Assembly (NCBI GenBank): GCA_030674455.1
Contig: JAUSGQ010000065.1
Coordinates: 1 to 63,510 of the forward strand
Direction: 5' to 3'
DNA length: 63,510 nt
DNA from: a bacterium
Lineage (GTDB): Bacteria; Patescibacteriota; Minisyncoccia; Phycocordibacterales; UBA2100
Of the stretch, positions 21,978 through 63,510 are shown piece by piece. The notes beneath the pieces were generated by a model, which had not been told where the DNA came from, made no database searches, and worked only from the letters and a program-made list of their open reading frames with translations. The translations under genes and the position numbers were made by a program. How positions within the stretch are numbered: position 1 is the first letter of the stretch; every line of letters starts with the position of its first letter.

Positions 21978-22002
21978 CTCCACATTTCCCATATTGGCTA
22001 TT

Positions 22003-26302: not shown

Positions 26303-26353
26303 GTGGAAAAAATAATTATATATACCGATGGGGGAGCGAGAAATAATCGCTAG
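26303..26353 (+). pseudogene. relic 5' fragment of a divergent rnhA allele
   Basis: VEKIIIYTDGGARNNR* compared with intact MTRLVIYTDGGARNNPGP. Seven of the 10 shared codons differ, and all differences are synonymous. Confidence 0.55.
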
Positions 26354-26465: not shown

Positions 26466-26882
26466 ATGACAAGGCTTGTAATCTATACAGATGGTGGTGC
26501 ACGAAACAATCCGGGGCCCGCTGGCGCGGGAGCTGTCATCATTGATGGCGCCAAAAAAATCGAAATAAAGAAATTTCTCGGCAATCAGACTAATAATTGG
26601 GCAGAATACGAAGCGGTTGCGCTCGCACTTGCGGAGGCAAAAAAGCGCGGGTTTGCAAAACGCGCAATTGAAGTGCGGCTCGACAGCCAGCTTGTCGCCG
26701 AACAGCTCTCGAATCACTACCAGATAAAGGAGGAAACGCTCTGGCCGCAGTATATGAAAGTACACAATCTACTGGTCGCGAATTTTCCGGACGCGGTTTT
26801 TAATTATGTTCCCAGAGAGCAAAATAAAGAAGCAGACCGGCTTGTGAACGAAGCAATCGATGAAGCGAATTCCCCGAGGTAA
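26466..26882 (+). CDS. rnhA: ribonuclease HI
   Basis: IYTDGGARNNPGPAGAGAVI, TNNWAEYEAVALAL and NKEADRLVN. Confidence 0.9.
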   Translation: MTRLVIYTDGGARNNPGPAGAGAVIIDGAKKIEIKKFLGNQTNNWAEYEAVALALAEAKKRGFAKRAIEVRLDSQLVAEQLSNHYQIKEETLWPQYMKVHNLLVANFPDAVFNYVPREQNKEADRLVNEAIDEANSPR

Positions 26883-26924: not shown

Positions 26925-28433
26925 ATGAGCACAAACATCCTCTTCGCAATCATCCTCGGATTTCTTGCAGGAGTTTTCGCGCGCTCTTTTCTTTTGCTTG
27001 GATATTCTGTCGCCGGATTTGCGGCGCTCCTTGCCGCAGCTGCGTTCGTTTTCGCATATATCGATGAGGGGAAAAGAAAATCACTCATAATTATCGCAGT
27101 CGCGCTTATCTCGTTCGCGGGAGGAATCTCTAGGATGAATAGCGCGGTGCTTGTGGGCGACCCGATACTCACTTCACGCATTGATGAAAAAGTTACGATT
27201 GAAGGAGTAGTTGCCGAAGAGCCGGATGTGCGCGAAAGCAACATCCGCATTTCGCTCCATGCGGACAATCTTGTATTTGCCGGAACAACGACTCCAGTCA
27301 ACGCCGGAATTCTCGCTATCGCCCCTCTCAATACGGTCGTGAAGTACGGCGACCGCATCCGCGCAAAAGGAACGCTACGGCTTCCGCAAGCGTTTGAAAT
27401 CGGTGAAGGACGGCAATTTAATTATCCGGAATACCTCGCTAAAGATGGAATCGGATACGAACTTGCATTCGCCGAGGTCGAAAAGATTTCCGGCGGACAC
27501 GGAAACATAATTAAAGAATCGGCGATTTGGATTAAGCAGAAATTCTTGGAAGGCCTGGGACTAGCGCTTGTAGAGCCGCAGGCGGGTCTCGGAGGCGGCC
27601 TCACAGTGGGTGACAAGCGCGGACTGGGAAAAGATTTATCGGATACTTTTATTACCGTCGGGCTTATCCATGTTGTCGTCCTGTCCGGCTACAACATCAT
27701 GCTAGTCATGAACGGCGCTGCGAAAGTTTTCTCGCGTGCGCCGCGATTATTCAGACTGTTCCTCTCTGGATTCATCGCGATACTTTTTGCGCTCATGACG
27801 GGCGGCGCTTCCTCGTCGGTCCGCGCCGCCGCGATGGCGATGATAGGAGTTATCGGCCGAGCGACAGGTCGGTTATATCTCGCGACGCGCGTTCTTGGGA
27901 TCGTTGCCCTCGCCATGGTCATGTGGAATCCGTTTATCCTCGCGTTTGATTTGGGATTTCAGCTGTCGGTTCTCGCGACACTTGGTCTCATTTGGTTCAC
28001 GCCGATTTTCTCCGTTCGCTTACAATGGATTACCGAAAAGTTTGCTTTGCGCGAAATTGCCTCCTCAACGCTCGGCACACAGCTCGCTGTTCTTCCTCTG
28101 CTTCTGTATCAAAACGGCCAGCTTCCTCTTTTTTCGCTTCCGGCGAATTTGCTCGCGCTCATCGCCGTTCCTTCGGCAATGGCCGCTTCAACAATTGCAT
28201 CCATAGGCGGTCTTGTTGCGGACGCCCTACCTGCACTGAGCGGAGTCGAAGTGTTGATTGCATTCCCAGCATACCTTCTTCTCACCTACATTATTGAAGT
28301 CGCAAAATTCTTCGCGTCGCTCCCGTTCGCTTCTGTTGGAATAGGAGCATTCAGCGCGTGGTGGATGTTTCTTGCATACGCGGTGATGATTGGAGGACTT
28401 GCATTTATAAAAAAACGAACGGCAGGAGGATAA
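26925..28433 (+). CDS. comEC: ComEC/Rec2 DNA-uptake channel, N-terminal part (DUF4131 plus competence domain)
   Basis: Multi-TM protein with TVGLIHVVVLSGYNIMLV and GASSSVRAAAMA competence-domain motifs. It lacks the MBL domain. Confidence 0.85.
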   Translation: MSTNILFAIILGFLAGVFARSFLLLGYSVAGFAALLAAAAFVFAYIDEGKRKSLIIIAVALISFAGGISRMNSAVLVGDPILTSRIDEKVTIEGVVAEEPDVRESNIRISLHADNLVFAGTTTPVNAGILAIAPLNTVVKYGDRIRAKGTLRLPQAFEIGEGRQFNYPEYLAKDGIGYELAFAEVEKISGGHGNIIKESAIWIKQKFLEGLGLALVEPQAGLGGGLTVGDKRGLGKDLSDTFITVGLIHVVVLSGYNIMLVMNGAAKVFSRAPRLFRLFLSGFIAILFALMTGGASSSVRAAAMAMIGVIGRATGRLYLATRVLGIVALAMVMWNPFILAFDLGFQLSVLATLGLIWFTPIFSVRLQWITEKFALREIASSTLGTQLAVLPLLLYQNGQLPLFSLPANLLALIAVPSAMAASTIASIGGLVADALPALSGVEVLIAFPAYLLLTYIIEVAKFFASLPFASVGIGAFSAWWMFLAYAVMIGGLAFIKKRTAGG

Positions 28434-32915: not shown

Positions 32916-33470
32916 CTAAAGTCGAAACAATTTGCGCAATCGTTCCTCTCCCTCAATGTGGTCCAGAACTCCGTACAAGACGTAACGAGACAGTTGCGAT
33001 TCCGCCTTTATTAACTGGATGAGCTCATTGCATTCGTGTGGAAATATCCAAACGCTTTGCTGAAGCTTTACAAAACCCGCCCGCTTCAGGATGTCACGTA
33101 TCTTACGTCGTAACGGGGCATATATCTCAGGAATGTCGAAAATCGCTACACGCCATTTATGGTCCCATTTCTGGGTTTTAAGAAGACCAAATGTCTTTGA
33201 GACTGTCTCCCCGAGTGCGGTCCGACCGTTGTCTGTAATTGAGAGACGTGCTCCCGCAGAGTTAATGTAATTGAGTTCAATCAAACGATCGAGCGCGCGT
33301 TTTCGTCTATGCCGATATGCCGCACGTTCATGCGCGAGTTTATAGAAACGCCTTGTTGACCGAGCAGAAAGCAAGAAGCCGTAGAGAATATCTCCAAGAG
33401 ATAGTTCGGAAAGTATTTCGCGCTCTATTGCACCGAGCCCGTGCGTTTTGTGTTTTCCTGAGCGACGCAT
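32916..33470 (-). CDS. wHTH regulator with PaaX-C/Cas2-fold-like domain (paralogue of 21411..21977)
   Basis: KWRVAIFDIPEIYAPLRRKIRDILKRAGFVKLQQSVWIFPHE. The ATG at 33470 is preferred, because the track start lies inside the upstream palindrome. Confidence 0.7.
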   Translation of the reverse strand: MRRSGKHKTHGLGAIEREILSELSLGDILYGFLLSARSTRRFYKLAHERAAYRHRRKRALDRLIELNYINSAGARLSITDNGRTALGETVSKTFGLLKTQKWDHKWRVAIFDIPEIYAPLRRKIRDILKRAGFVKLQQSVWIFPHECNELIQLIKAESQLSRYVLYGVLDHIEGEERLRKLFRL

Positions 33471-33517
33471 GATGTCATCATGACATGTCCGGCCGGACAA
33501 TCAATGATGACATGTGG
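33470..33517. promoter_or_regulatory. imperfect palindrome with the same ATGTCCGGCCGGACA core
   Basis: GATGTCATCATGACATGTCCGG/CCGGACAATCAATGATGACATG. Confidence 0.7.
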
Positions 33518-34531: not shown

Positions 34532-34639
34532 ATGGCAAGAGACTACCCATTGGAGAAAGTCCGTAACTTCGGAACCCCGATACCGCAGCGCTACGCGCTG
34601 GCTACGGGGCAGGTCATCGCCCACAATTACACAATATGA
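34532..34639 (+). pseudogene. relic fusA 5' end, readable as a 35-codon uORF whose TGA overlaps the fusA ATG
   Basis: MARDYPLEKVRNFG + 13 inserted codons + VIAH..., compared with intact MSRDYPLEKVRNFGIIAH. ATGA overlap at 34636-34639. Confidence 0.55.
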
Positions 34640-37499: not shown

Positions 37500-40400
37500 A
37501 TGGACCCTGTGCCAAACCGCATTTCAACCGAGCCTGTTTTGCATCCAGACGTTGCCCCCATCGGCACGCCGCAACATCATTATCGGTGGAAGAAGGTCGT
37601 GATTTTCGGCATCGTTCTAATTCTATTTCTTGCCGGCATTCTCGCTAAGAGTATTTTGGGAGGGACATCGTTCTCTACTCCAAAAACAAATTACGTTCCT
37701 GTCTATACGCTCGTGAATGAAAAGATTTCCGAACACGGTGCAATAATAATTAATTTACCCAAGGGAGTCTCTCAAAAGGGAGCGGAAACAAAAGTATCTT
37801 TTGACCCCGGTATTGCAGGAGAGTGGATTGAATCAGATTTGCCGAACGCGGTAGTGTATAAACCCGCCGCCGCGCTCGCACTCGGCAAGCATTACAACGT
37901 TGCCCTCGCGACGGACGCGGGCGCAATCAAGAAAGATTTCTTGGTTGATGAAGACCCGCGCGTTGTGAGCGTTTTCCCCGATTCAAATGCGGAGGCGGAG
38001 CTCGCTTCGGCAATTACGGTTGTCTTTAACAGGCCGATGGTTCCACTTACGACACTCTCTGAATTGGATAAAAAAGATGTCCCGGTTTCCGTTTCTCCGG
38101 CGACACCCGGAAAATTCAAATGGATAAGCACGCGGACTCTGCAATTTATTCCCTCAGCGACGCTATATGGCTCCTCTCATTACACGGTAACCGTCAATCC
38201 AGGATTCATTTCAATGGACGGGATTTCGGTCGCGCCTAAAACGTTTTCATTTAGGACAAAACAACTTCGTCTTAACAGCTCGACATCCGGCACTATCGTC
38301 TATAACGAGCCCATCAATTTCTATTTCAACCAGCCGGTAGATATACAGAAAACTTCCGGAGAAATAAAGGTCATAAATAACGCAACAAATGCCCAGATAG
38401 AATTTGTCGCAAGCTACGGCACTTCTTATATTTGGGACGCGAATAATAATTCCGAAAGAGAAGTTCAGGACAAATCTATCGTCAGTATTCTCCCCAAGAA
38501 TTCCAAGAACGGCCATTCAAACGTGTGGGACTTTTCGACTCCCTATACCGCTACGATAAAAACTGCGTACCCGATTGGCGGGGACATAGCGCTTACCGGT
38601 AATGTTCCGCCTCTAACGGTCGGCGCGCCCCCCGGATCCATTGGTTTTGCACCGCTTGTGCCGGGTGGAAGGTATCCATACCCTGTGCCGCAATCGTTTA
38701 ATAATCCTGGTATGGTTCCGCCACAATTGCCGAGTGTCTTTCCGGGAAACTCTGGAGGTTCGGCCGCGATTGCAACGGTGACCACAAGTCCAGTATTGAA
38801 AAGCGTTACCGTCCTTTCCGAAAATACCACCCTGGCCTCGCCCCAGCTTTTTGACCCTACCGGGACCACGACCTTTTCTTTTTATGAAGACATAGACAAA
38901 GAGAAGAGTGGCATAAACGCCAAGGGATTAAAGAATATCGAGTACGGCGAGAAATGCGAGGAAGAAAACAGCGAGGGATATTATTCGAAATCCTGTAAGA
39001 AAGTTAAAGACAAATCACAGCTCATCTTTACTTTTGATGCCTCTGTATACGCGAGTGGAGAAAAAGTGCCGGTTACATTTGAACGCCTGATAAACGCAGG
39101 CGGATACCAGGTGAATACTGAGCCAATCGTTACGGAGCTCACGGTGTACCCGCAGTTGCGCATAACCTCGACTACGCCTGCAAACAATACCGATGGAGCG
39201 AGCGTAAAAGATTTAATCCTCTGCACCAACACTCCCCTGAAAGAATTGGACGGAAAGAAATTTCACGCTGCATTCAAAGCCAACAAGTACATGGTTTTTG
39301 GACGAAAGGATAACCCCTATTTACAAACAAATAATTATTGGGAAAAACCGCGGCCATGCGCTATCGGCGATTACGTAAACAGAATTCATTACGGCCTTCA
39401 TCCGGAGCAGGCGTATGCCATAAATGCCTCTATCGAAGATGTGTTCGGGCAGAAAGCGAATACGCAACTTTCTTTCACGACTGGAAAAGCGCCCAAATTC
39501 TATCTGCGATTCCAGAGTTTGCAGAAAATCTACAATGTCACAACGCCCGAACGCACGAAACTCACGTATGCTACGGAGAATTTCGATTACGTTGACCTTT
39601 CTATATGCAAAGTGAGCGCCGATTCAATGGTTCGCATTCTTGCGGCGCAACCGAGCGACACGAGCACTGCGTCAAATGGCTCCCTTCCGTGCCTCATTTC
39701 GCAATACAAGCAGATTCCGCTGAAACCCGACCAGTGGGTGAACCAATATTTCCAAATAGACCTAAAGGATTATTTTCCGGACCCGCGCGGGCAGTTCATT
39801 CTTTCCTACAGCCATCCGCAGTATGTGAACCGGGAAGGCCTGCCGCTCTACGCGAGAACGTATTTGAGCGTTACTAACTTGGCCGTTGTGGAAAAGCGCG
39901 TTAAATGGTCTTCCTATGACAATCTGCCTGATGTGCCAAGCACAGTCGACCCCGCAACGCGCGGTTCCGTTTACTGGGTGAGCCGGATGCATTCAATGGA
40001 GCCAGAAAATGCGGCATCGGTGAACGTATACAAATCGGGCGGAGCGGATAGATGGGGCAACAACAATACGACAGTGCCGCCCATACTTGCGCTATCGGGT
40101 GCCACGAATGCAAGTGGTTTCGGAGAGTTTCCACTCATTGCGGATGTCGTTGGTGCTGCTGTCATGAGCGGTCCGTCTACAGGTGCCGACGCTAACTCCG
40201 TCGGCCAGGAATCGGCGGTGGTATCCACGTGGGTGGACACAATAAGCAATAACAGTTGGCGGAATGCATATCAGAACGAGAAGATGTATGTGTATACCGA
40301 CAGACCTATTTATCGGCCCGGCCAGGAAGTCTTTATTAAAGGCTTGTACCGATTGGACTTTGACGGGGTTTTTGAAGTATTCCGCGATGCCGATGTAAAA

Positions 40401-43400
40401 CTGCAAGTCACCAACAGCAAGGGAGAAATAATACTGACGCAAAAGTTGCCAGTGAGCTCGTACGGCACGATTTCCACGAGTGTTAATCTTCCAGCGGACG
40501 CGCCGCTGGGTTCGTACAGTATTAACGCGGGAGGAAGCGGGTACGCATTCTTTGATGTTGCCGAATATGTGGGTGCTGCGTTTGAAGCAAAGGCAGAAAC
40601 AGATAAAGAAGAATACATAGCCGGAGATACGGTCAACTTCAAGATATCGGGCAAATATTATTTTGGAGTTCCGCTTGACGGCGGGTTGCTCGATTACAGC
40701 TTGACCTCGCAAAACTTTTACTTCGACCGCTACACGGACGAATACTTCAACTTCGGGGGAAATTGGTACTCGTGCTACGACTGCGGATACGGCGACACGT
40801 ATCTGAAGAGCGGCAAAGTCCAACTCGACGCAGAGGGGAGAGCGAGTATCGCGCAACAGCTTGATTTCGATGACCTCTTTACGGATGACGCGCGCGAGCA
40901 GAGCAAGATATTCGTTCTGCACGGAACGATAAAAGACAAGCAGGGCAAATCTGTCAGTTTCCAAAAATCATTCATAGTACACCGCGGAGATTTCTATATG
41001 GGAGTCAAAGCCGACCCCTCGTTTACGGGAACGAATCAGCCGGTCGTGATTCGCGCGAAAACCGTGGACGTGGAGGGAAAGCCTAAATCAAAATCCGGAA
41101 TTACCGTGGTGGTGAATAAGGTCACATGGGATTCAAACAAGCGTCAGGAAGTCGACGGGGGATATTACAATCGCGCGGAACAGGTTTTGACACCGGTTAT
41201 CACCAAGAGTTTCTCGACAAACGGTTCTGGTGATGATTCCGCAGAGATAAAGTTGAAAGACCCGGGGCAGTACGCGATAGTAGCCACCGCCAAAGATGGA
41301 AAAGACAACGAAATAAAAGGTACGAGCGAAATATATGTGTATGGGGAAGGAACGGTAGATGTGCGCCCGACCAACAACGCGACACTCGAATTAAAAGCAG
41401 AAAAGAAAGATTTGAAAGTCGGGGAACGCGCCAAACTCATCATCCAATCGCCGTATCCGCGCGCGAAAGCTCTTATCTCAATAGAGCGCGGCCGAATATT
41501 CACCTACGAAGTAGTGAATATCGAGAGAAACATGTACGAATACGAATTCCCAATCACCGAAGATTACGCACCGAACGTTTTCGCATCAGTCGTTTTATTA
41601 TCGTCCGGCCCGGAGGTCAAATACGGACAGATTGAATTCACCGTGGACCGCAAGGCGAAAGAACTGACGATAGATATTAAGCCCGGCAAGCTCTCGTATT
41701 TGCCTGGGGAGAAAGTAACGCTTAACGTGACGACGAAAGACGCGAAAGGGAATCCGGTGCCTGCGAATGTCTCTCTTGCGGTAGCGGATTTGAGCGTACT
41801 CGCGCTCAAGGGCAATCCGAAAAAGGACCCGCTTCTGTTCTTCTATGACGGTTTACCGCTTACAGTAACGACGGAAACGAATGTGAAGAACCTGCTTCAG
41901 GAGGCGGAAATTCCGACAGGCACAAAAGGCGGCGACGGAGGGAACCCTGCAGACCTCGCGACGCGCAAGCGCGGTGAATTTAGAGATACCGCGTTTTGGC
42001 AGGCGGATGTCGTTACAAACGCGCAAGGGATGGCGACAGTCACGTTTACCCTGCCGGACAATCTGACAAGGTGGCAAGTGGAATCGGTCGGCATTACGAA
42101 AGACACGAAGCTTGGCGTGCGCTACCAGGAAATCACTGCTCAAAAGGGGGTGATGACCATACCTCAGAAGCCGCGATTCATTGTGCCGGGCGATGAATTC
42201 ATGATAGGGGCAAAAATATTTAACCAGACTCTAAATTCTCAGACGCTTGAAATTTCTCTAGAAAGCAAGACGCTTGAATTACTTGATGCGCGAAAAACGA
42301 AAAAGACCATACAGGCAGGTGCTACAGAAGCGATATATTTCAAAGTGAAAGCGCCGGAGAATTTCACCGACGGCATACACGCGTTCATACTCTCCGCGAA
42401 AAATAACGATTACAACGATACGGTCGAACAGAATATTTCAATAACGCGGAACACCACGTATGAATCTACCGCGACAGCGAATTCCACAAGCGCCCTGAAT
42501 GAATCAGGGTATCTATTTCTGCCGGATGGCGTTCTCAAAGACAGGGGAGGGCTCACGATAAAAACGAGCGCCACACTCGCGGTGTATCTCTCCGACGCGC
42601 TACAGTATCTTTTCTCGTATCCGTACGGATGTTCTGAACAGCTCGCGAGCCGGCTTTCCTCGATGGCGATTACAAAGAAGGCGCTCGCGATTCCGAATGT
42701 TAGTACGCAGTTTAAATTCCCAACGGTAACGTTCAACGGAACAGAATACACGGTGGACCAGGCGGTGAACAAGGGACTGGCGCAGCTCTACGACAGCCAA
42801 ACAGTCGACGGCGGATTTTCGTATTACAAAGGCCTTCAGGCCGACCCGTATCTTTCCATGCACGTTCTCAATACTTTGATAGATATAGAGAAGGCGGGCT
42901 ACAACGTGCGGCAAGACGTAATTAGCAGAGCGGTCACGTATTTGTACGGGCAGGTACTGTACGTGAATAATCCGCAGAACACCATCGCGAATGATACCGA
43001 CACACTTATTTTTGCCGCCTACGCGTTATCGCGCGCCGATGGCGTTTCCGCGTCTTTCTCGGCACTAATGAATAAAATCGTCGGACGCGCAACTGTGCAA
43101 TACCTTTCAGATTCTGCGGGAAGCCAGGCGCTAGGGTACTTGGCGCTTGTGGCGGCTAGGGGCGGTACGAGCGAGTCTTTTAAAAATACCGTGTTCTCAA
43201 CTCTTATCAATAAAGTTGATATTGATTCCCGCGGGGCCTACGTAAAACAGAATGTGAAGAATATCAGCTGGCGATATTACGAAACCGCGGAAAAAGACAC
43301 CGCCCTTTTCCTCAAAGCACTCGTCGCGGATAAGCGCGAGTATTCGCAGACGGCCAATATTTTGCGCTGGCTCCTCGCGAGCAGAGCGAAAGACGGCTCA

Positions 43401-44288
43401 TGGGGTTCCACGAATACATCTGTCGCTGTCATTGACGCGATGTCGGATTACCTCTCGTGGAAGCGCGAGACGGAATCAGAATTTACTCTCGCGACCACCC
43501 TCGATGGGGGCGCGGTAAACTCCACAAAGTTCGATAAGAAAAATATTCTATCAACGATAGAAACTTTCCTGCCGATATCAAAAATCAGTGCAGGCATTAA
43601 TCACGTGCTTGCGTTTACAATAACTAACAATAATTCGCTTCCGAATACTTTCTACTACGACTTGAGCCTCAAATATTATTTGCCCGTACAGCAAATTGCA
43701 CCGAGAGACGAAGGCGTTGCCATCACGCGCGAGTTCTACAGTTTGACGGATAAGCTGAATGCCCGCCCGCTTCAAAGATCTAAAGTGGGGGACGTGGTTC
43801 GCGGAGTTCTCACCATCATATCTGCGAAACCGCGCAATATGTTCGCGATTGAAGATTATATTCCTGCGGGTTTTGAACTTGTGGATTTCAACCTAGCGAC
43901 GGAAGACCAAAGTTCAATTGACGCCGGATCAGGCGCGCCGCCGAGCGAGCGAAGGTCGCCATACGGCGCAGGACTGCAAACCAAGTCACTCGCATCCTCG
44001 TTCTGGAGCTGGAAAGGAATACGCGGATTGTTCAGCAAATCTCCGGTAGTTGAAGTCTCAGGCTCTCCGACCGTGTATCAAAAGTTCAACCCGGAATTCA
44101 AAGAAATGCACGATGACCGGCTATTCCTCTTCTCGCAAAACGTCCCCGCAGGAGCGTACACATACGAGTACTACATCCGCGCGACGACACCGGGTACTTT
44201 CAGCCATCTTCCGGCGATAGCGAGCGACCTGTACTTCCCCGAGAACTTCGGCCGAACCGCCGGGTCCGTGTTTACTGTCCTGCAGTAA
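37500..44288 (+). CDS. alpha-2-macroglobulin family protein (2262 aa), membrane anchored
   Basis: N-terminal TM helix, MG-type Ig repeats, FWQADVVTNAQGMATVTFTLPDNLTRWQV, thioester-type motif YPYGCSEQLAS (CSEQ at 42630-42641), DGSWGSTNTSVAVIDAM and FAIEDYIPAGFELVD. Confidence 0.9.
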   Translation: MDPVPNRISTEPVLHPDVAPIGTPQHHYRWKKVVIFGIVLILFLAGILAKSILGGTSFSTPKTNYVPVYTLVNEKISEHGAIIINLPKGVSQKGAETKVSFDPGIAGEWIESDLPNAVVYKPAAALALGKHYNVALATDAGAIKKDFLVDEDPRVVSVFPDSNAEAELASAITVVFNRPMVPLTTLSELDKKDVPVSVSPATPGKFKWISTRTLQFIPSATLYGSSHYTVTVNPGFISMDGISVAPKTFSFRTKQLRLNSSTSGTIVYNEPINFYFNQPVDIQKTSGEIKVINNATNAQIEFVASYGTSYIWDANNNSEREVQDKSIVSILPKNSKNGHSNVWDFSTPYTATIKTAYPIGGDIALTGNVPPLTVGAPPGSIGFAPLVPGGRYPYPVPQSFNNPGMVPPQLPSVFPGNSGGSAAIATVTTSPVLKSVTVLSENTTLASPQLFDPTGTTTFSFYEDIDKEKSGINAKGLKNIEYGEKCEEENSEGYYSKSCKKVKDKSQLIFTFDASVYASGEKVPVTFERLINAGGYQVNTEPIVTELTVYPQLRITSTTPANNTDGASVKDLILCTNTPLKELDGKKFHAAFKANKYMVFGRKDNPYLQTNNYWEKPRPCAIGDYVNRIHYGLHPEQAYAINASIEDVFGQKANTQLSFTTGKAPKFYLRFQSLQKIYNVTTPERTKLTYATENFDYVDLSICKVSADSMVRILAAQPSDTSTASNGSLPCLISQYKQIPLKPDQWVNQYFQIDLKDYFPDPRGQFILSYSHPQYVNREGLPLYARTYLSVTNLAVVEKRVKWSSYDNLPDVPSTVDPATRGSVYWVSRMHSMEPENAASVNVYKSGGADRWGNNNTTVPPILALSGATNASGFGEFPLIADVVGAAVMSGPSTGADANSVGQESAVVSTWVDTISNNSWRNAYQNEKMYVYTDRPIYRPGQEVFIKGLYRLDFDGVFEVFRDADVKLQVTNSKGEIILTQKLPVSSYGTISTSVNLPADAPLGSYSINAGGSGYAFFDVAEYVGAAFEAKAETDKEEYIAGDTVNFKISGKYYFGVPLDGGLLDYSLTSQNFYFDRYTDEYFNFGGNWYSCYDCGYGDTYLKSGKVQLDAEGRASIAQQLDFDDLFTDDAREQSKIFVLHGTIKDKQGKSVSFQKSFIVHRGDFYMGVKADPSFTGTNQPVVIRAKTVDVEGKPKSKSGITVVVNKVTWDSNKRQEVDGGYYNRAEQVLTPVITKSFSTNGSGDDSAEIKLKDPGQYAIVATAKDGKDNEIKGTSEIYVYGEGTVDVRPTNNATLELKAEKKDLKVGERAKLIIQSPYPRAKALISIERGRIFTYEVVNIERNMYEYEFPITEDYAPNVFASVVLLSSGPEVKYGQIEFTVDRKAKELTIDIKPGKLSYLPGEKVTLNVTTKDAKGNPVPANVSLAVADLSVLALKGNPKKDPLLFFYDGLPLTVTTETNVKNLLQEAEIPTGTKGGDGGNPADLATRKRGEFRDTAFWQADVVTNAQGMATVTFTLPDNLTRWQVESVGITKDTKLGVRYQEITAQKGVMTIPQKPRFIVPGDEFMIGAKIFNQTLNSQTLEISLESKTLELLDARKTKKTIQAGATEAIYFKVKAPENFTDGIHAFILSAKNNDYNDTVEQNISITRNTTYESTATANSTSALNESGYLFLPDGVLKDRGGLTIKTSATLAVYLSDALQYLFSYPYGCSEQLASRLSSMAITKKALAIPNVSTQFKFPTVTFNGTEYTVDQAVNKGLAQLYDSQTVDGGFSYYKGLQADPYLSMHVLNTLIDIEKAGYNVRQDVISRAVTYLYGQVLYVNNPQNTIANDTDTLIFAAYALSRADGVSASFSALMNKIVGRATVQYLSDSAGSQALGYLALVAARGGTSESFKNTVFSTLINKVDIDSRGAYVKQNVKNISWRYYETAEKDTALFLKALVADKREYSQTANILRWLLASRAKDGSWGSTNTSVAVIDAMSDYLSWKRETESEFTLATTLDGGAVNSTKFDKKNILSTIETFLPISKISAGINHVLAFTITNNNSLPNTFYYDLSLKYYLPVQQIAPRDEGVAITREFYSLTDKLNARPLQRSKVGDVVRGVLTIISAKPRNMFAIEDYIPAGFELVDFNLATEDQSSIDAGSGAPPSERRSPYGAGLQTKSLASSFWSWKGIRGLFSKSPVVEVSGSPTVYQKFNPEFKEMHDDRLFLFSQNVPAGAYTYEYYIRATTPGTFSHLPAIASDLYFPENFGRTAGSVFTVLQ

Positions 44289-46515
44289 CGTGAACAAGAA
44301 TGTGGGCAATCGTTCCATCACGGCTCACCGCTTTTATTGTGTAGTCAATCGCCTCTCTCGGAGAGAACATAATTCTATTTCCGTCTCCTAAGAATTCACC
44401 GTTTGCATACCACTCAACATTTTCGGGCGAGACGAGGGGAATCTGCGTTCGCGACTCCAGAAGATACGTGTCGCCATCTTGCGGAGACATAATGAGCGAT
44501 TCGTCGGGCAGGAGGTTGCGATGTTCCGCTATCACATCTCCGCGGAGCCCGAAATCAATACTGTCATTTACCGAAACGTCTTGCACGAGAGAAAAATCGA
44601 GCGGTGTTTTCTTGTTGTAGTCCGAATTCATGAGCAACTGCATCGCGTCGTGCCAGATTGCGCCTGCTCCCGATTGGCCTGTGACGTGGCGCAGGGGAGT
44701 GTTGTCTGGATTTCCATACCACACGACGACGAGAAAATCAGGCGTGTAGCCGACTGTCCAGCTATCGTGGTAATCCTGCGACGTGCCCGTCTTCACGGCG
44801 TAATTGGATTGCGACAAATTCAGACTGCTCGCAAGCCCGAACTGCTGAACCCCGGTGATGCGGTCATTCAATACTTTTGTCACGAGTTCCGCGAGCGCGG
44901 GCTCGGCCACTTTCTTATCGCCCGTGAACGGCGACATCGGCGCAGCAATCATCGGCGTGGTGGTGCCGCTTAAGTACAGGCGCAGAGGTTTGAGCACGCC
45001 TTCGCCGGGAAAGAGGCTCAAATAGTGCGCGAGCGTGAGCGGGTCCATCTCGAGCGCTCCCAATGCGATGCCGTATTGATACGTGTCGAGGTCTTGCAGG
45101 GGCTTGAAGCCCAGCGTGTGTTCGAGAAAATCATAAAAATTAGTGAGCCCGATAAATTGCAATACTTTGACAGTCGGTACATTGAGGCTATTCGAAAGCG
45201 CGCTGTGCAGAGTAATCCATCCGCGGTATTGGCCGTCATAATTTTTCGGATACAGCGGGAACCCGCTGCCGATACCAAATTTGTATTCGCGGTCGTTTAC
45301 GAGGGTGTAGGGGCGCAGGCCTTTTTCAAATCCCTCCAGATAGATAAATGGTTTCGCCGTCGAGCCTATGGCTCGCGGCTGAAGCGCCATATTTATTTGA
45401 TGGCCGGACTCATAACCTTTTGTATCCGGCGTGCCGACGATAGAAAGAACCTCATTTTCAGGAAGCTTCAAAACCACAATCGCGCCGCTTCGCGCACCCG
45501 CGTCCCAGCCACGCTCCACATGTCTCTTTAGTATGTTCCTCAGCTTATCCGTCAAGTCTGCGTCAAGCGTTGTCCTGCATGTCACTGCGCACTTCACTCC
45601 CATCGAAGAAAGCTCGAAATCTTTAACGGGCGCGTAGTCATGCTCTTTTGTTATGTGCGCCAAGCTCGGATCGAATTCCACACCAACGCGAAGCGCGAGA
45701 TTACGCGACGCGCGTGCATTTTCTTCACGCCACGGGTTTTGGATGCTGGGGCTTGAGAGCGTCGCGAGTAGCATGGAAAGCTTTGTGTCATCAAGCTCCG
45801 CGAGCGGCTTTCCGAAATATAATTCGCTCGCCTCGCCGAGTCCCTGCACCTGATTGCCCATGTAAACGGTATTTCCGTACATCGTCACTATCTGCGTTTT
45901 TGTATTAAATAATTCGAGAGCGAGCGCGTAGAACATTTCCAAAATCTTGTTGCTAATCGACCGCTCCTGCTCATGCCAGAGCAGGTTTTTCACCAATTGC
46001 TGGGTGATGGTACTCGCGCCTCCAATTGCATCGCCAGTGACGTATCGAAACGTCGACCGCGCGGTACTCAAAGGATTAATCCCCGGATGATAGTAAAAGA
46101 ATTGGTCCTCCTTTTTGATGAGCAGTTCCAACACGCGCGGGGGGAAAACTTCTGCGTATCGCCCGTAAGCGTCTTTTGCATTCGGAAAGAGAGTTAGTAA
46201 TTGCCCGTTTCTGTCTTGGATTGCCACGGATTCAAGGTTCCTATAATTAGAAATGAGGCGTTGATTAGCGGCACTAAATAGTAGGAAAATGGCGATAATT
46301 GCAACCGCCACAAGTGAAAGAAATCGTTTGCGCCTCCGGTTGTCGCGCATCAATGCGGAGAACCTGTTTTTAATATCATTCAAGGAATGAAGATATCGTT
46401 TCGCTACTGTTTTCACCCATGAAGTATAGCGCCCATTTTCTTCCGCTGTTCTGGCATTGCGCGGGCTTTTTTGCTTGACGTGGAAATGCGGTCTGATACT
46501 ATTGTTCGACTGCAT
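44272..46515 (-). CDS. pbpC: penicillin-binding protein 1C-type bifunctional transglycosylase/transpeptidase
   Basis: GT51 motifs EDQFFYYHPGINP and GASTITQQLVKNL. Transpeptidase motifs STAKPF, SNS and KTGTS. A C-terminal beta domain is present. Confidence 0.9.
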   Translation of the reverse strand: MQSNNSIRPHFHVKQKSPRNARTAEENGRYTSWVKTVAKRYLHSLNDIKNRFSALMRDNRRRKRFLSLVAVAIIAIFLLFSAANQRLISNYRNLESVAIQDRNGQLLTLFPNAKDAYGRYAEVFPPRVLELLIKKEDQFFYYHPGINPLSTARSTFRYVTGDAIGGASTITQQLVKNLLWHEQERSISNKILEMFYALALELFNTKTQIVTMYGNTVYMGNQVQGLGEASELYFGKPLAELDDTKLSMLLATLSSPSIQNPWREENARASRNLALRVGVEFDPSLAHITKEHDYAPVKDFELSSMGVKCAVTCRTTLDADLTDKLRNILKRHVERGWDAGARSGAIVVLKLPENEVLSIVGTPDTKGYESGHQINMALQPRAIGSTAKPFIYLEGFEKGLRPYTLVNDREYKFGIGSGFPLYPKNYDGQYRGWITLHSALSNSLNVPTVKVLQFIGLTNFYDFLEHTLGFKPLQDLDTYQYGIALGALEMDPLTLAHYLSLFPGEGVLKPLRLYLSGTTTPMIAAPMSPFTGDKKVAEPALAELVTKVLNDRITGVQQFGLASSLNLSQSNYAVKTGTSQDYHDSWTVGYTPDFLVVVWYGNPDNTPLRHVTGQSGAGAIWHDAMQLLMNSDYNKKTPLDFSLVQDVSVNDSIDFGLRGDVIAEHRNLLPDESLIMSPQDGDTYLLESRTQIPLVSPENVEWYANGEFLGDGNRIMFSPREAIDYTIKAVSRDGTIAHILVHVTAGQ

Positions 46516-46671: not shown

Positions 46672-47868
46672 ATGGCAGAATTTAATCGAACAAAGCCGCA
46701 CGTAAACGTCGGCACAATCGGTCACGTCGACCACGGAAAGACCACTTTGACTGCGGCGATTTTGCACGTCCTCTCGAAGGCGGGCAATGGATACTCGGCG
46801 ACCGTCAAAGGTGTTGACGACATCGACAAGGCGCCTGAAGAGAAAGCGCGAGGCATTACTATCTCGCTCTCTCACTCCGAATACGAGACACCAACTCGCC
46901 ACTACGCGCACGTGGACGCTCCCGGCCACGCCGACTATATAAAGAACATGATTACCGGCGCCGCACAGATGGACGGCGCGATTTTGGTTGTTGCCGCGTC
47001 CGACGGCGTGATGCCGCAGACTCGCGAGCACATCTTGCTCGCCCGTCAAGTCGGCGTGCCGAAGGTCATCGTGTTCCTCAACAAAGTCGACCAAGTTGAC
47101 GACAAAGACCTCGTTGACCTCGTCGAGGAAGAGGTGCGAGAGCTTCTCACTAAATACGAATTTGACGGCAAGAACACCCCTGTTATCCGCGGTTCAGGCC
47201 TTAAGGCGCTTGAAACTCCGGAGCCGGGCAACGAGTGGTCGGGCAAGGTGATGGAACTCATCAAGGCGCTCGACGAGTTTATTCCGATACCGAAGCGCGA
47301 AATCGACAAGCCGTTTTTGATGCCAATCGAAGACGTGTTCTCAATTGAAGGACGCGGCACTGTAGTCACCGGCCGTATTGAACGCGGAGCCATAAAGGTT
47401 GGCGCGGAAGTTGAGATCGTCGGCATCGTCGACACCACGAAGACGATTGTCACCGGAATTGAAATGTTCAACAAATCGCTCCAGGAAGGGCAGGCAGGCG
47501 ACAACGCCGGAGTACTTTTGCGCGGAACGAAGAAAGACGACGTGCACCGCGGCCAAGTTCTTGGCGCGCCGGGTACAGTGAAGCCGCACACAGAATTTGA
47601 GTCGGAAGTTTACATCTTGACCAAAGAGGAAGGAGGCCGTCACACGCCGTTCTTCACCGGATACAAGCCGCAGTTCTACATGAGAACGACAGACGTTACC
47701 GGCGAAGTGACGCTTAAGGAAGGCGTTGAAATGGTTATGCCTGGCGACACCGTTACATTCAAAGTGAAACTCGTGGGCCCGATCGCAATCGAGGAACAAC
47801 AGCGCTTCGCGATTCGTGAGGGAGGTAAAACAGTTGGCGCTGGTGTAGTGACTAAGGTTGTAGCTTAA
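46672..47868 (+). CDS. tuf: elongation factor Tu
   Basis: [18 protein letters not shown] and NKVD, with a full-length match to the EF-Tu pattern. Confidence 0.98.
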
Positions 47869-47904
47869 CCTTCCGCGCCGCGCCCTCCGAAGCTTTAGCG
47901 AAGG

Positions 47905-47958
47905 AGGGAAGGAGGCAAGACGGTTGGAGCGGGGGTAGTTACCAAAGTAGTGGCATAG
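47905..47958 (+). pseudogene. relic tuf 3' end (17 codons plus stop)
   Basis: [17 protein letters not shown] repeats the tuf C-terminus. 15 of 18 codons differ and none changes the amino acid. Confidence 0.6.
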
Positions 47959-47962
47959 GAGC

Positions 47963-47990
47963 AGGTTATAGGGAATAGATTATAGGTGAT
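47963..47990. repeat. AGGTTNN heptad array, near-copy of 29079-29106
   Basis: AGGTTAT AGGGAAT AGATTAT AGGTGAT (25/28 identical). Confidence 0.85.
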
Positions 47991-47997
47991 AGAAAGA

Positions 47998-48025
47998 GAA
48001 AAACCCGCCTTAAGGCGGGTTTTTC
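47998..48025. terminator. 28-nt perfect palindrome with A/T runs
   Basis: GAAAAACCCGCCTT/AAGGCGGGTTTTTC. Confidence 0.75.
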
Positions 48026-48057
48026 TAGAGGTCTCTCCTCGAGAATTTTGCATTTGA

Positions 48058-48131
48058 GGTTCCCGAGGTGACTCCTTGGCATTTGCCTGCCTGCGCCGAG
48101 GCTTCTGCGGGCAGGCAAGGTGTCTCCTCGG
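48058..48131. repeat. structured element with arms GTTCCCGAGGTGACTCC / GGTGTCTCCTCGGGAAC
   Basis: It has an inner hairpin TTGCCTGCC...GGCAGGCAA. The same arm sequences occur at 60405-60494. Confidence 0.7.
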
Positions 48132-48200
48132 GAACGGGCCATTTCGTTGTTGCTTTTTTTGTTCCGATAGTGCATACTCTGCGGGTTCATTTCAATTCAT

Positions 48201-51198: not shown

Positions 51199-51354
51199 AG
51201 ATGTTCAGATGCGAGACAAAATCCGCTGGGTAAACCTGCGGATTTTGTGATGTATGCACGGGTGTATTTAGTGTTCCTTATTACTCACGGTCGTGAGGAA
51301 TAAGGAACAGCAGAGAGACATACACTAACTGTGCGCGGGCGCGCACAGTTAGTG
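51178..51354 (+). repeat. cassette terminator module copy 1 (three hairpins)
   Basis: Includes the last codons of the gene. The 93-nt block 51262-51354 is identical to 52835-52927. Confidence 0.9.
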
Positions 51355-51428
51355 GGTGGTAGTTGGTGAAAAAATGAGCGAATGTTGCGTCATTTGTCAG
51401 CCGAAGGAAGCCGAATTCGCGACCCGTA

Positions 51429-51468
51429 TGTGGACAACGCCGACCTCGGCGATTGCTGGTGTATAATT
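51429..51468 (+). promoter_or_regulatory. cassette promoter module copy 2
   Basis: 37/40 identical to 49892-49931. TATAAT at 51462-51467 lies 7 nt before the ATG at 51475. Confidence 0.6.
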
Positions 51469-51474
51469 AGGGGG

Positions 51475-52098
51475 ATGAATTTAGATTCCAGGAAAATTGC
51501 CGCAGCATTGTCATTCGCTCTTGCAATGCCGTTGATTGCTTTTGCGCAAGGAAGTGCGTCGGCTCCAACCGCCGATAGTCAGGCACCTCAAACAAGCGAT
51601 ATCTTTTCCTTCGTTCTCGACAAAGGTATCTACACATGGGGGGACCCGATAACAATCATTCTTTCTCTTTCACCCGAAGGTGAACAGGCGGAAAAAAAGA
51701 GCGCTCTTCTTTTTGACGCTGACATCAAAAACACAGCCGGAGTAGCGTGCGCTGTAATTACGAAAGACCATCCGGTCCGTAGCGAAGCCCCTGTTCTCCA
51801 GCCATTTCCCACGGAGAAGGATTCATATAAATTTGTGTTACCGAATAGAAAAGGATGCGCGGGGCCATCGACGGTTAACATTGCGCTAAAAACGCAAGAC
51901 AATTCGCAAGTCGCTATTACGAGCGTTCCCGTATCAATGCTAGAGTCGGCGACAGCGCCGACGGTATGGACGGATAAACCGTTGATACAGCAAAAAGATA
52001 CAACAAGCTCTATCCCGATAATTCCGACTGCCATACTCCTGTTCGCTGCACTTTGCGTAGCCGGGTATGTTGCGTGGCGGAAAAAGAGATATCAGTAA
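51475..52098 (+). CDS. hypothetical secreted protein with C-terminal TM anchor
   Basis: Signal peptide MNLDSRKIAAALSFALAMPLIAFA and C-terminal IIPTAILLFAALCVAGYVAWRKKRYQ. Confidence 0.55.
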   Translation: MNLDSRKIAAALSFALAMPLIAFAQGSASAPTADSQAPQTSDIFSFVLDKGIYTWGDPITIILSLSPEGEQAEKKSALLFDADIKNTAGVACAVITKDHPVRSEAPVLQPFPTEKDSYKFVLPNRKGCAGPSTVNIALKTQDNSQVAITSVPVSMLESATAPTVWTDKPLIQQKDTTSSIPIIPTAILLFAALCVAGYVAWRKKRYQ

Positions 52099-52134: not shown

Positions 52135-52776
52135 ATGTTCACAGAAAATCGTTCATCGCTTAACGACCGGAAGCTATCCATAGCGTTGATTCTCTTTTCA
52201 TCAGCAATCCTTTTAGCGTGGGGATTCGCAAGCGCGGCATCTCGAACTTGGACATATGGCGACTGGACACGAGATTGTCAGGTAGTAACAAAAGGTGTTG
52301 ACGGGCTATATTACGATTCTGAAGGCGCGGTGGTAACTATAGGCAATGGGTGGACGGTATCAGAACCATTCACGGATGAAAACGGTACGACTTACACCAT
52401 CTGCGGACCTGAATATTACATAACTAGTGCAACATTCAATGCCTCCACCGACAAGGATACGTACACTCCAGGCGAGACAGTTACAGTTTCCGTCAGTGCA
52501 GATAATGGATGGTATGGTAGCGGGGGCACAGCTGTAGGGGTAGCAGCTGCCTTCGGAGGAACACAAGTTGCCCAGTGTTCTTTGACTAATGTCTGTAGCG
52601 CCTCGGGGTCTTTTACCGCCCCAGCAGCGAATGGTACTTACACCATTCAACTGAGTGGATGCACTGTCACCTCTGAATATTGTGCCAATTCCACTATGGC
52701 TATAACAGTCGAGTCGCCTCCGCCATCTCCGCCAGAATCGGGGGGGACGCCTTCGGTGACGCTTCGATTCGAATAG
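52135..52776 (+). CDS. hypothetical secreted protein
   Basis: N-terminal anchor/signal LSIALILFSSAILLAWGFASA. The C-terminus SVTLRFE parallels TVTLQFQ of the 50449 gene. Confidence 0.55.
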   Translation: MFTENRSSLNDRKLSIALILFSSAILLAWGFASAASRTWTYGDWTRDCQVVTKGVDGLYYDSEGAVVTIGNGWTVSEPFTDENGTTYTICGPEYYITSATFNASTDKDTYTPGETVTVSVSADNGWYGSGGTAVGVAAAFGGTQVAQCSLTNVCSASGSFTAPAANGTYTIQLSGCTVTSEYCANSTMAITVESPPPSPPESGGTPSVTLRFE

Positions 52777-52927
52777 AGATGTTCGAATGCGAGGCAACAT
52801 CCGCAGTTCATGCGGATTTTGAGATATATGCTCGCGTGTATTTAGTGTTCCTTATTACTCACGGTCGTGAGGAATAAGGAACAGCAGAGAGACATACACT
52901 AACTGTGCGCGGGCGCGCACAGTTAGT
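52755..52927 (+). repeat. cassette terminator module copy 2
   Basis: See 51178-51354. Confidence 0.9.
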
Positions 52928-52951
52928 GTATGAGAGGAAAACAGGGGTAAG

Positions 52952-53089: not shown

Positions 53090-53665
53090 AGAACTCCCTG
53101 CGCTTGTGCGCAGGGATGAATGGCCGCAGATGCAATACAATAGGTATGCATGTCTCGCACACCGGATATCAAATCAAAAGAAGGACTATGGCTTTGGTAT
53201 CACAATGTCTCGGAGTGCTACTATCATATACAAATTACGGTAAAGTATCGGAAGTCGTTGTTTGACGAACCGGTACAGAAGCTCATGCTCCAAATCGTGA
53301 GCGGGTTCAAGGAGCGTTACGCCATCGATATTCACGAAATCGGATTCGACCAGAACCATGTCCACCTGCTGTGCCGTTTCCTCCCCAAATACAGCGGAGG
53401 CCAAGTCATCAAGCTCATCAAATCAATTACAGCAAGCCAGCTATTCAAATTCATACCCAAACTCAGGAAAGAGCTGTGGGGAGGGGAATTCTGGACGGAC
53501 GGCTACTACATCGCCACAATCTCCGGCAAGGGAGACAAGCGCGTGATTGAAAGGTACATCCGAAACCAGGGACGCGAGAAAGATATTCCCCAGCTTCGAC
53601 TCTTCACGCTCGACTAACCATTGGCATCCAGACGTCAACGCCCTGCGCTTGTGCGCAGGGTGGGT
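53090..53665 (+). mobile_element. IS200/IS605-family-like (Y1 transposase) element bounded by identical hairpins
   Basis: CCCTGCGCTTGTGCGCAGGG occurs at 53096-53115 and again at 53641-53660, flanking the tnpA gene. Confidence 0.7.
53150..53617 (+). CDS. tnpA: IS200-like Y1 (HUH) transposase / REP-associated tyrosine transposase-like
   Basis: YHIQITVKYRKSLF, QNHVHLLCRF (HUH) and WTDGYYIATISG (catalytic Tyr region). Confidence 0.85.
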   Translation: MSRTPDIKSKEGLWLWYHNVSECYYHIQITVKYRKSLFDEPVQKLMLQIVSGFKERYAIDIHEIGFDQNHVHLLCRFLPKYSGGQVIKLIKSITASQLFKFIPKLRKELWGGEFWTDGYYIATISGKGDKRVIERYIRNQGREKDIPQLRLFTLD

Positions 53666-60214: not shown

Positions 60215-60278
60215 CTTTTCGGCCGGAGCAGCGACGGCTGCGAGGCGGGGACGCGCACATTTTCAGCAGAAAATGATG

Positions 60279-60302
60279 CGTGGAAAAGTCACTTTGAAAT
60301 AA
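60279..60302 (+). pseudogene. relic copy 2 of the rplL 3' end
   Basis: (R)GKVTLK* with synonymous changes and its own compensated hairpin AAAGTCACTT tgaaat AAGTGACTTT. Confidence 0.5.
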
Positions 60303-60373
60303 GTGACTTTGGCGCACGCGGGCTCATTTGTGCGACGGCGCGAATGACGTCGAAATCAGTAGATTTCGACGAT

Positions 60374-60397
60374 GGCGGTAAAGTTACGCTGAAATAA
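60374..60397 (+). pseudogene. relic copy 3 of the rplL 3' end
   Basis: GGC GGT AAA GTT ACG CTG AAA TAA encodes GGKVTLK*. Confidence 0.5.
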
Positions 60398-60404
60398 TCA
60401 AAAT

Positions 60405-60494
60405 TCCCGAGGAGACACCTCCCCGTAGGTGAGAAGTCACCTCGAACAAAATCCACGAGACACCTCCCCCAGGGGTGAGGAGTCACCTCGGGAA
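60405..60494. repeat. structured element with the same arms as 48058-48131
   Basis: TTCCCGAGGAGACACC (60405-60420) pairs with GGAGTCACCTCGGGAA (60479-60494). It contains two ~35-nt direct sub-repeats. Confidence 0.7.
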
Positions 60495-60560
60495 CCGGAC
60501 TCACCTCGGAAATGGAAAAATAACGCCGAAATACGTCTTTTTTCGGAATCCAAAGAGATT

Positions 60561-63103: not shown

Positions 63104-63375
63104 TGATGTCTATATGCATTGTCCTTCGAAGCCCTCGCGAAGAAGGAGTGCTCGTTGAAAACTGAAGAGCGACAAAAAAGAACCCGCCGTCGCGTAAAGC
63201 TATGGCGGGCGAAGAAGAATTCAAACAAAAGTGTTGATGCGGTTTCGACTGCATCAGCGCAGGAACTCATACCGTATCGTCTACGGTATGGGCAACAAAA
63301 ATCCCACACACGTTTGTAGCGTGTGCGGGTAATCCGAACCCGAAGGCAGCGGTGCCTACGGAACGGATTCAACGC

Positions 63376-63510
63376 GGTTCTCAGAATTCCTTACGGGAGT
63401 TCTGAGTAAGGGCGTGCGGTGGATGCCTTGACTCTAAAGGGCGATGAAGGACGCGGCTTAGCTGCGATACGCTTCGGGGAGGTGCTATGCAACCTGCGAT
63501 CCGAAGATTT
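63376..63510 (+). rRNA. rrl: 23S rRNA, 5' end (partial, continues beyond the window)
   Basis: GGTGGATGCCTTGACTCTAAAGGGCGATGAAGGACGCGGCTTAGCTGCGATA matches the conserved 23S 5' domain (E. coli GGTGGATGCCCTGGCAGTCAGAGGCGATGAAGGACGTGCTAATCTGCGATA). The exact 5' end is uncertain (63376-63396). Confidence 0.85.

Follow-up and report, generated by a model that had tools for sequence, protein, structure and literature searches.

The gene tuf, which encodes elongation factor Tu (EF-Tu), occupies positions 46672-47868 of a 63,510-nucleotide (nt) stretch of DNA (contig JAUSGQ010000065.1 of assembly GCA_030674455.1), referred to below as the window, and is followed at a distance of 36 nt by a second, differently spelled version of its own last 17 codons and stop. 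The DNA derives from a groundwater metagenome; its gene content is typical of the Candidate Phyla Radiation (CPR) and the host is Kaiserbacteria-like. The tuf gene is intact, encodes 398 amino acids and gives a full-length match to the EF-Tu model (TIGR00485, 689 bits). Its product is 96-98% identical to EF-Tu of Kaiserbacteria-like metagenome bins and ~91% identical to that of Candidatus Kaiserbacteria, while an exact-protein look-up returned no record of it. Unless stated otherwise, the features of this junction lie on the plus strand.

The working 3' end of tuf (47815-47868) consists of 17 residues and TAA and reads CGT GAG GGA GGT AAA ACA GTT GGC GCT GGT GTA GTG ACT AAG GTT GTA GCT TAA. 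Beyond a 36-nt spacer (47869-47904) the second version, here called the relic (47905-47958), encodes the same 17 residues, followed by TAG, as AGG GAA GGA GGC AAG ACG GTT GGA GCG GGG GTA GTT ACC AAA GTA GTG GCA TAG, and has no start codon. The two ends are identical at 38 of 54 nt, with no identical run longer than 5 nt, and differ at 15 of 18 codons without a single non-synonymous change; 15 of the 16 nt differences fall in third positions and one in the first position of CGT/AGG (both Arg). An earlier reading of this DNA (the preliminary description) had reported a 17-residue peptide re-encoded 36 nt past the tuf stop, with 15 of 18 codons changed synonymously, and a CCCTCC...GGAGGG hairpin in the spacer. 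The sequence reads exactly so, and the stem is present in the predicted minimum-energy fold. When the flanks of 50 genes were scanned with each gene's own peptide, the tuf relic scored 88, as compared with 41 for the 99.9th percentile of the null. Relic scans were performed with our own peptide-word and ungapped BLOSUM procedure; a tblastn self-search was noisy and overlooked the tuf relic.

Directly behind the relic lies the native tuf 3' untranslated region (3'UTR; 47959-47996), which is of the AGGTTATAGGGAATAG type and homologous to DNA directly 3' of the tuf stop in the relatives L086 and L085. It is followed by the native tuf intrinsic terminator, a perfect 13-bp palindrome, GAAAAACCCGCC..GGCGGGTTTTTC (47997-48026, no strand assigned), of a type that also stands 3' of the tuf stop in most relatives.

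The tuf junction in independent assemblies

Read support for the junction was judged from assembled contigs (Logan, k-mer-based) and not from raw reads. Sequencing run X1 contains 89% of the window's sampled words, and a 478-nt Logan contig of X1 matches 47580-48057 exactly (0 mismatches, 0 gaps; depth 32.3), the contigs adjoining it having depths of 30.6-34.5. No alternative joint was found at an identity of at least 93%. A 386-nt contig of X5 has the same layout (19 mismatches and 0 gaps over 47746-47949), and the same succession of gene end, spacer and relic was found in L132, which comes from a different metagenome in the JGI collection. Thus the junction is real DNA and, to the extent that contigs can show it, did not arise in assembly. 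The preliminary description had proposed to check the junction against reads; the exact X1 contig at even depth, together with the layout shared by the X5 contig and L132, supplied such support at the level of contigs.

The groundwater metagenome is complex and holds many tuf variants, and a low-stringency search finds many foreign tuf contigs that align to the relic, so the tuf genes of two strains or species might have been stitched together by the assembler. However, the exact 478-nt contig runs across gene end, spacer, relic and terminator at the depth of its neighbours; no repeat of at least 31 nt, which could mislead a 31-mer graph, occurs among gene end, spacer and relic; and the layout was assembled independently in X5 and in L132. 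Such a chimera is therefore extremely improbable. A synthetic or recoded construct had been suspected from HindIII, XbaI, BsaI and XhoI sites near the relic and was rejected, since the sequence is present in a 2022 groundwater run and relatives of it occur in several independent metagenomes. A search of a plasmid collection gave no match to the window.

Origin of the two gene ends

Codon-by-codon comparison of gene end and relic at six relic-bearing tuf loci yielded ~52 codon differences, all of them synonymous. Even where EF-Tu is 96-99% identical, relatives agree with the window at just 40-45 of the final 54 nt, and TKVVA is a frequent tail in the clade. Both ends of L132 have counterparts among real tuf alleles: its relic resembles the end of L094 (93% identity) and its working end that of L091 (91%). 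These comparisons suggest that, until recently, each of the two ends served in a working EF-Tu gene; that they did so until they were joined would explain why all differences are synonymous. Since tuf third positions are heavily diverged even between relatives with 96-98% identical EF-Tu, the donor of a new end need not be distant, and a donor from the same family would be enough. The preliminary description had argued that both versions evolved under EF-Tu selection in different lineages and were then juxtaposed. The all-synonymous differences, and a relic 94% identical to a relative's real end, agree with this; separate working alleles hold, and the "different lineages" are refined in that the donor need not be a distant one.

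Two other sources of a second gene end were rejected. A tandem duplication of gene end plus spacer is ruled out, as there is no second spacer copy 3' of the relic. A diversity-generating retroelement does not fit, the differences between the two ends being all synonymous and not confined to adenines (all four bases are involved). No reverse transcriptase was found in the window, where an RVT_3 match (26466-26882) is the RNase H fold of rnhA.

The DNA from 47908 to 48023 aligns as a single block with relatives, covering the real tuf end together with its 3'UTR and terminator in L086 (78.6% over 117 nt) and L085; with L081, 47908-47971 aligns likewise. Block alignment of the relic plus its downstream DNA does not by itself tell which end is native, since both models yield the same sequence. 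Three further observations point to the relic as the native end and the working end as the incomer. First, a related 737-nt contig of X5, from the same aquifer study, carries a tuf of normal length in which 41 nt match 47728-47768 (93%), 49 nt are unalignable and the next 51 nt match 47908-47958 of the relic (94%). These stretches total 141 nt, the normal length of that part of tuf, and the 49 nt gave no alignment with 47769-47817 of the window even at an 80% threshold. An insertion-free allele therefore exists, and its end matches the relic. Second, third-position identity between the window tuf and six close relatives is 0.55-0.8 in the body of the gene as against 0.27-0.48 in the last 33 codons, the drop starting near 47769. 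Third, of the 14 codons 381-394 of L162, a 98%-identical relative, 8 are the same in the relic and 2 in the working end.

These patterns make ~139 nt (47769-47907; left boundary approximate, ~+/-10 nt), that is, the last 100 nt of working tuf and the spacer, a putative foreign patch that replaced 49 native nt, with the relic as the native end. What the preliminary description had called a relic copy would thus be the native end, displaced, and the working end the incomer. Placing both ends among related tuf genes, which it had also suggested, gave 94% identity of the relic to the real end in X5 and, for the patch, a best match of 82% among 161 loci.

The relic is most likely a non-functional pseudogene fragment, a recombination scar and not a working gene; it would be transcribed at most within the tuf 3'UTR, and not translated. 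We also considered whether the second copy might be functional, either translated, from a non-AUG start behind AAGGAGG or by ribosome hopping, or kept by selection to track the gene. Consistent with function, there is no amino-acid change in 17 codons in either the window or L132, the tails of gene and relic agree (VVA in the window, IVA in L132), a strong Shine-Dalgarno-like AAGGAGG lies at 47901-47907, and the spacer evolves more slowly than adjacent third positions. However, no ATG, GTG or TTG is in frame with the relic, and an in-frame TAG three codons 5' of it (47896-47898 in the window) is kept in L132 as well. The reading frame of the relic agrees with that of tuf in the window (offset 90 nt) but not in L132 (offset 103 nt), and its product would duplicate an existing peptide. 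As both tails are common in the clade, matching VVA and IVA can be chance, and other relics are broken or changed (those of rpsJ and rplL in L093, L044 and L144). Moreover, the relics of the window and L132 match different real alleles (93-94%) and stand in lineage-specific 3'UTRs, which argues that they were recently derived from working genes and not anciently conserved. A functional second copy is thus very unlikely. A single ancient relic kept by selection, which the spacer shared by the window and L132 made worth considering, was set aside on the same grounds, each relic lying in the 3'UTR of its own lineage. Programmed bypassing or readthrough was rejected as well: EF-Tu is complete at the first stop, a second in-frame stop follows at 47896, and the offset differs in L132.

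The dispersed hairpin and relics at other genes

The 36-nt spacer is missing in relatives without the insertion; in L081-L091, L167 and others it does not follow the tuf stop. It contributes most of a 33-nt hairpin (47876-47908; stem CCCTCC at 47884-47889 and GGAGGG at 47903-47908), whose conserved interior, GAAGCTTTAGCGAA, also occurs in different, co-varying stems in L132, L084, L106 and L061. Hairpin copies with 91-97% identity were found in other X5 and X1 contigs with unrelated flanks, for example in a 32.7-kb contig with 1 mismatch. Therefore, the hairpin is a dispersed repeat, and the DNA between the two boundaries of the patch is foreign to the tuf locus, its spacer being missing in insertion-free relatives and its hairpin standing in unrelated contexts elsewhere. 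The hairpin 3' arm, GCGAAGGAGG, equals the tuf codons cGC GAA GGA GGc of close relatives, a 10-nt identity with codons 381-384 that lies 8 nt out of register. This identity may explain the position of the junction, GGAGG/GAAGG at 47907/47908, which has an overlap of 1-3 nt.

The window contains one strong copy of the tuf hairpin and one weak copy. The weak variant, TCCTTCGAAGCCCTCGCGAAGAAGGA (63116-63152; 26.9 bits, E = 0.003), lies ~250 nt 5' of the start of the 23S rRNA gene, which begins at the window end (63396-63510). That rRNA start (63396) is the sole above-threshold Rfam match in the window, and the Rfam search gave nothing but terminator-like noise at the spacer and relic. A 16-nt hairpin core, CGAAGCTTTAGCGAAG, is found twice in a bin labelled Gammaproteobacteria (L061, 1317-1353 and 3166-3202), where both copies sit in a longer repeat that brackets genes inserted 3' of fusA. 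The window has a second intergenic repeat family, consisting of related long hairpins, GTTCCCGAGGTGACTCC...GGTGTCTCCTCGGGAAC, at 48059-48135 (5' of rpsJ) and 60405-60500 (3' of rplL relics described below).

The tuf genes of the window and L132 share just 80% DNA identity, yet spacer and junction are common to both: the spacer regions are identical at 47 of 50 nt despite heavily diverged flanking third positions, whereas the working ends differ at 12 of 18 codons. The 3'UTR of the window is of the AGGTTATAGGGAATAG type seen in L086, and that of L132 is of the TTTCTTCT type seen in L088, L099 and L117. The same junction was found only in the window, L132 and the 386-nt X5 contig. In the simplest reading, one insertion allele moved between lineages by homologous recombination in flanking tuf-like DNA, and the recipient's end became the relic. 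Directed insertion is the alternative to allele spread for L132.

In one form of directed insertion, the 33-nt hairpin, perhaps together with a gene-end copy, would be a mobile element resembling a miniature inverted-repeat transposable element (MITE) or a repetitive extragenic palindromic (REP) sequence, inserting site-specifically at the REGG codons of tuf via a transposase or recombinase and bringing a replacement end so that the essential gene survives. The dispersed copies with unrelated flanks (91-97%), the co-varying stems of L084, L106 and L061, the identical junction in the window, L132 and X5, and the identity of the GCGAAGGAGG arm with relatives' tuf codons count in favour of such an element. 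In addition, the window holds an IS200-like Y1 transposase gene (Y1_Tnp; 53150-53617), and the L084 hairpin adjoins a two-ORF (open reading frame) module that looks toxin-antitoxin-like by eye (without a family search). However, the Y1 transposase gene has a different hairpin, CCCTGCGCTTGTGCGCAGGG, on either side (53096-53115 and 53641-53660), so that a link between it and the tuf hairpin is unsupported; only one strong tuf-hairpin copy exists in 63.5 kb; and on its left side the foreign DNA ends within tuf, where no element terminus can be seen. The 12 of 18 codon differences between the working ends of the window and L132 leave no recently shared unit of gene end plus hairpin visible, and other relic events, with unrelated spacers and different breakpoints, form a pattern that a single element cannot explain. 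A mobile hairpin is therefore an unlikely source of the junction. The locus resembles REP and MITE sequences in having a short (33 nt), conserved, dispersed, imperfect palindrome in a 3'UTR and a Y1 (IS200-type) transposase gene in the same window, and differs from them in that the transposase's own flanking hairpins are not those of tuf. To our knowledge, REPs are not known to bring gene-end copies.

Relics are not restricted to this locus. Of 79 closer relatives, 5 carry a relic of tuf; L162-L166, a sixth type, have one of 4 codons. Relic length is 4 codons in L162, 8 in L092, 10 in L115, 15 in L119, 17 in the window and L132, and 30 in L103, and the DNA between tuf and relic ranges from 26-nt hairpins up to ~0.9 kb holding a whole gene. 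The inserts of L103 and L119 comprise one 199-aa ORF (NYN-domain-like by eye, without a family search) and one 283-aa ORF. No tuf relic was found in 67 more distant genomes, and ~0.9 Mb of more distant genomes contained one clear terminal relic of any gene, as compared with five in the 63.5-kb window.

The others in the window, likewise on the plus strand, belong to fusA, rnhA and rplL. The fusA relic consists of the first 14 codons, MARDYPLEKVRNFG (34532-34573), and starts 104 nt 5' of the fusA start. It continues as a 35-codon upstream ORF, MARDYPLEKVRNFGTPIPQRYALATGQVIAHNYTI plus stop (34532-34639), whose TGA overlaps the fusA ATG at 34636 as ATGA, and fusA translation could be coupled to this ORF. 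The relic stands at the native distance from a conserved leader, 'cgggcgtttt', like the start codon in L161. In L161 itself, a 62-nt hairpin spacer comes after a 2-codon fusA relic (ATG GCC TAG), and at fusA of L167 there are hairpins without a relic; in the window, L161 and L167 alike these features lie directly 3' of the same leader. The rnhA relic, (V)EKIIIYTDGGARNNR plus stop (26303-26353), lies 23 nt past the recJ stop and 113 nt 5' of the working rnhA start (26466), and shares 10 identical residues with rnhA within a 16-codon mini-ORF that begins 163 nt upstream of that start. Downstream of rplL (region 60273-60397), the last 6-7 codons and stop recur twice, as GKVTLK plus stop (60282-60302) and GGKVTLK plus stop (60374-60397).

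In relatives, relics of the rpsJ 3' end occur in L093 (7940-8100) and L044 (5141-5365), and an rplL 3' relic whose copy includes 10 nt of 3'UTR occurs in L144 (819-1070). Relics decay: a 16-nt hairpin insertion interrupts the rpsJ relic of L093, and those of L044 and L144 each have 2 amino-acid changes. L096 (1690-2130) holds a relic of the 3' end of another gene. The independent events in related genomes have different breakpoints and different inserted DNA. Relic formation is thus recurrent, and relics are much denser here than in more distant genomes. The preliminary description had pointed to similar relics at fusA, rplL and rnhA; all are real, but the fusA and rnhA copies are 5' ends lying upstream of their genes. 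Its view of a recurrent process of recombination with relatives at gene ends is backed by the independent relics at tuf, rpsJ, rplL and fusA with their varied breakpoints. It had also suggested a genome-wide scan for such relics; the 63.5-kb window gave five against one in ~0.9 Mb of more distant genomes.

These data also bear on whether the tuf junction is the remnant of a site-specific integrative element, namely a prophage, an integrative and conjugative element (ICE) or a cis-mobilisable element, that entered the tuf 3' end and was mostly deleted later. The layout is that of icd/e14/icdC (PMC13626634) and of rplL ICEs (PMC4701971), direct repeats of the gene end flank the 36-nt insert, and L103 and L119 hold whole genes between tuf and relic. 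However, the copies lack an identical core (longest run 5 nt) and so, in their present form, are not att sites. No integrase was found among the identified families in any relic-bearing locus examined, nor in Pfam and NCBIfam scans of the window ORFs, and the inserted genes are single small accessory genes. Breakpoints of 4-30 codons are unlike those of a site-specific recombinase, since the insertion point is not constant, and five relics at four genes in 63.5 kb would require several elements, all of them deleted. We regard such a remnant as quite unlikely.

In the window, the str/S10 order is rpsL, rpsG, a PaaX_M-like gene, an unknown gene, fusA, an unknown gene, alpha-2-macroglobulin (2262 aa), PBP1C, tuf, rpsJ, AbiEii and further genes. 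Close relatives have the same backbone with other genes in the same gaps, including a Phd/ParE pair, AbiEii and PaaX_M, and gap ORFs that by eye resemble a DinJ/YafQ-type pair and an NYN-domain protein. The 2262-aa alpha-2-macroglobulin gene and a convergent PBP1C-like gene (37500-46515) lie between fusA and tuf, where L161 has two unrelated small genes; the pairing of alpha-2-macroglobulin with PBP1C is familiar in other bacteria. Genes with a PaaX_M (Cas2-like) domain occur twice in the window (21411-22142, and 32916-33500 between rpsG and fusA), and a similar gene stands 3' of rpsJ in L167 and L169. A direct repeat of ~100 nt, identical or nearly so (51253-51355 and 52827-52929), brackets two ORFs of unknown function (51382-52098 and 52135-52776).

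The window also contains competence and pilus genes, namely comEC (26925-28433), pilB (13443-15182) and pilC (15633-16850). Between the pilus-operon genes, the heptamer ACGGAAT forms arrays in both orientations (15201-15221, 15610-15623, 16876-16955, 18742-18805 and 19432-19521), 12 matches having been counted where 0.7 were expected. These arrays give three consecutive ORFs listed N-termini that resemble one another.

Mechanism of formation and significance

The reading we favour, as probable though well short of certain, is that short DNA from a related Kaiserbacteria-like bacterium recombined into tuf and displaced the native tuf end as the relic. The incoming DNA would have consisted of the last ~100 nt of the donor tuf and ~39 nt of downstream flank including the 33-nt hairpin. 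On the left side it would have entered by an in-register crossover inside tuf near 47768, and on the right side by an out-of-register join to native codon 382. In this way 139 incoming nt would have replaced 49 native nt, leaving the native last 17 codons behind the new stop and before the native 3'UTR and terminator. The putative route is DNA uptake by a competence-equipped host, then homology-facilitated, one-sided illegitimate recombination. From there, ordinary homologous recombination in the tuf-like DNA on either side may have carried the insertion allele into other lineages. Such scars would sit in conserved genes because no others offer homology between diverged genomes, in keeping with the list of genes affected.

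Homology-facilitated illegitimate recombination (HFIR) is known from laboratory selections and usually deletes recipient DNA. It combines a homologous crossover at one end with an illegitimate join at the other (PMC3240628). The tuf locus would be similar in its putative in-register left boundary inside tuf and its putative illegitimate, out-of-register right junction, and comEC and pilus genes are present (gene presence only). It differs in that the outcome here is a partial duplication in a wild genome, and in that the same junction occurs in L132, which plain HFIR does not predict.

The locus can also be compared with elements that integrate at gene ends. In E. coli K-12, the e14 insert in icd, like phage 21, supplies a replacement 3' end, and the original end remains as a downstream fragment, icdC, with mostly synonymous differences (PMC13626634). 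Both systems have a working gene end, inserted DNA and a displaced end fragment, and tuf, too, keeps working. However, e14 is a 15-kb excising prophage with a site-specific recombinase and an att core, whereas the tuf locus has a 36-nt insert beyond the gene end, no recombinase that we found, no identical core and variable breakpoints. In Streptococcus, ICEs are found in the 3' ends of rplL, rpsI, guaA or tRNA genes, and their flanking repeats are the exact gene end, 12-54 bp in length (PMC4701971). The likeness is in the targets, the ends of conserved housekeeping genes, with rplL among them. The ICE repeats, however, are near-identical att sites produced by the tyrosine integrase of a large element, whereas the repeats at tuf have ~70% DNA identity, an integrase is lacking, and what was inserted is either tiny or a single accessory gene.

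Several points weigh against recombination of this kind as the origin of the junction. To account for the junction shared with L132, either one insertion allele must have spread by recombination or the process must be site-directed, since a random illegitimate junction would not recur. At the right junction the overlap is only 1-3 nt. The last 33 codons are less alike among the relatives as well (third positions 0.36-0.64), such that the mosaic signal of the window is only moderately above background. Moreover, the last four codons of the working end (GTT GTA GCT TAA) resemble the ends of close relatives more than those of the relic do, so that both ends have a mosaic character and the labels 'foreign' and 'native' do not apply to them cleanly. 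The search for a donor of the 99-nt patch was negative, none of the 161 loci exceeding 82% identity. Finally, all read evidence consists of contigs.

A bolder proposal would make the REGG junction directed and not a matter of chance: the ends of tuf, fusA, rplL and rpsJ could be landing sites of undescribed, integrase-less, hairpin-bounded cassettes that home to gene termini with a synonymous replacement end. Such cassettes would range from the bare 33-nt hairpin to small accessory modules and apparent toxin-antitoxin modules. We put this forward as a speculation and hold it to be unlikely.

The relic itself is ordinary junk DNA; what is notable is the frequency of the events at translation genes and the repeated hairpin junction. 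Relics provide a simple marker for recent transfer in metagenome bins and a warning for annotation, since the fusA relic forms an upstream ORF. If recombination between relatives is indeed their origin, relics would be traces, natural and datable, of recombination between diverged genomes in an uncultivated CPR lineage equipped for competence, and would mark the entry points of foreign DNA as the few genes conserved enough for homology. They would also show how the str/S10 region gained accessory genes (AbiEii, PaaX-like, alpha-2-macroglobulin/PBP1C, and toxin-antitoxin modules in relatives), and that the end of an essential gene can be swapped without loss of function.

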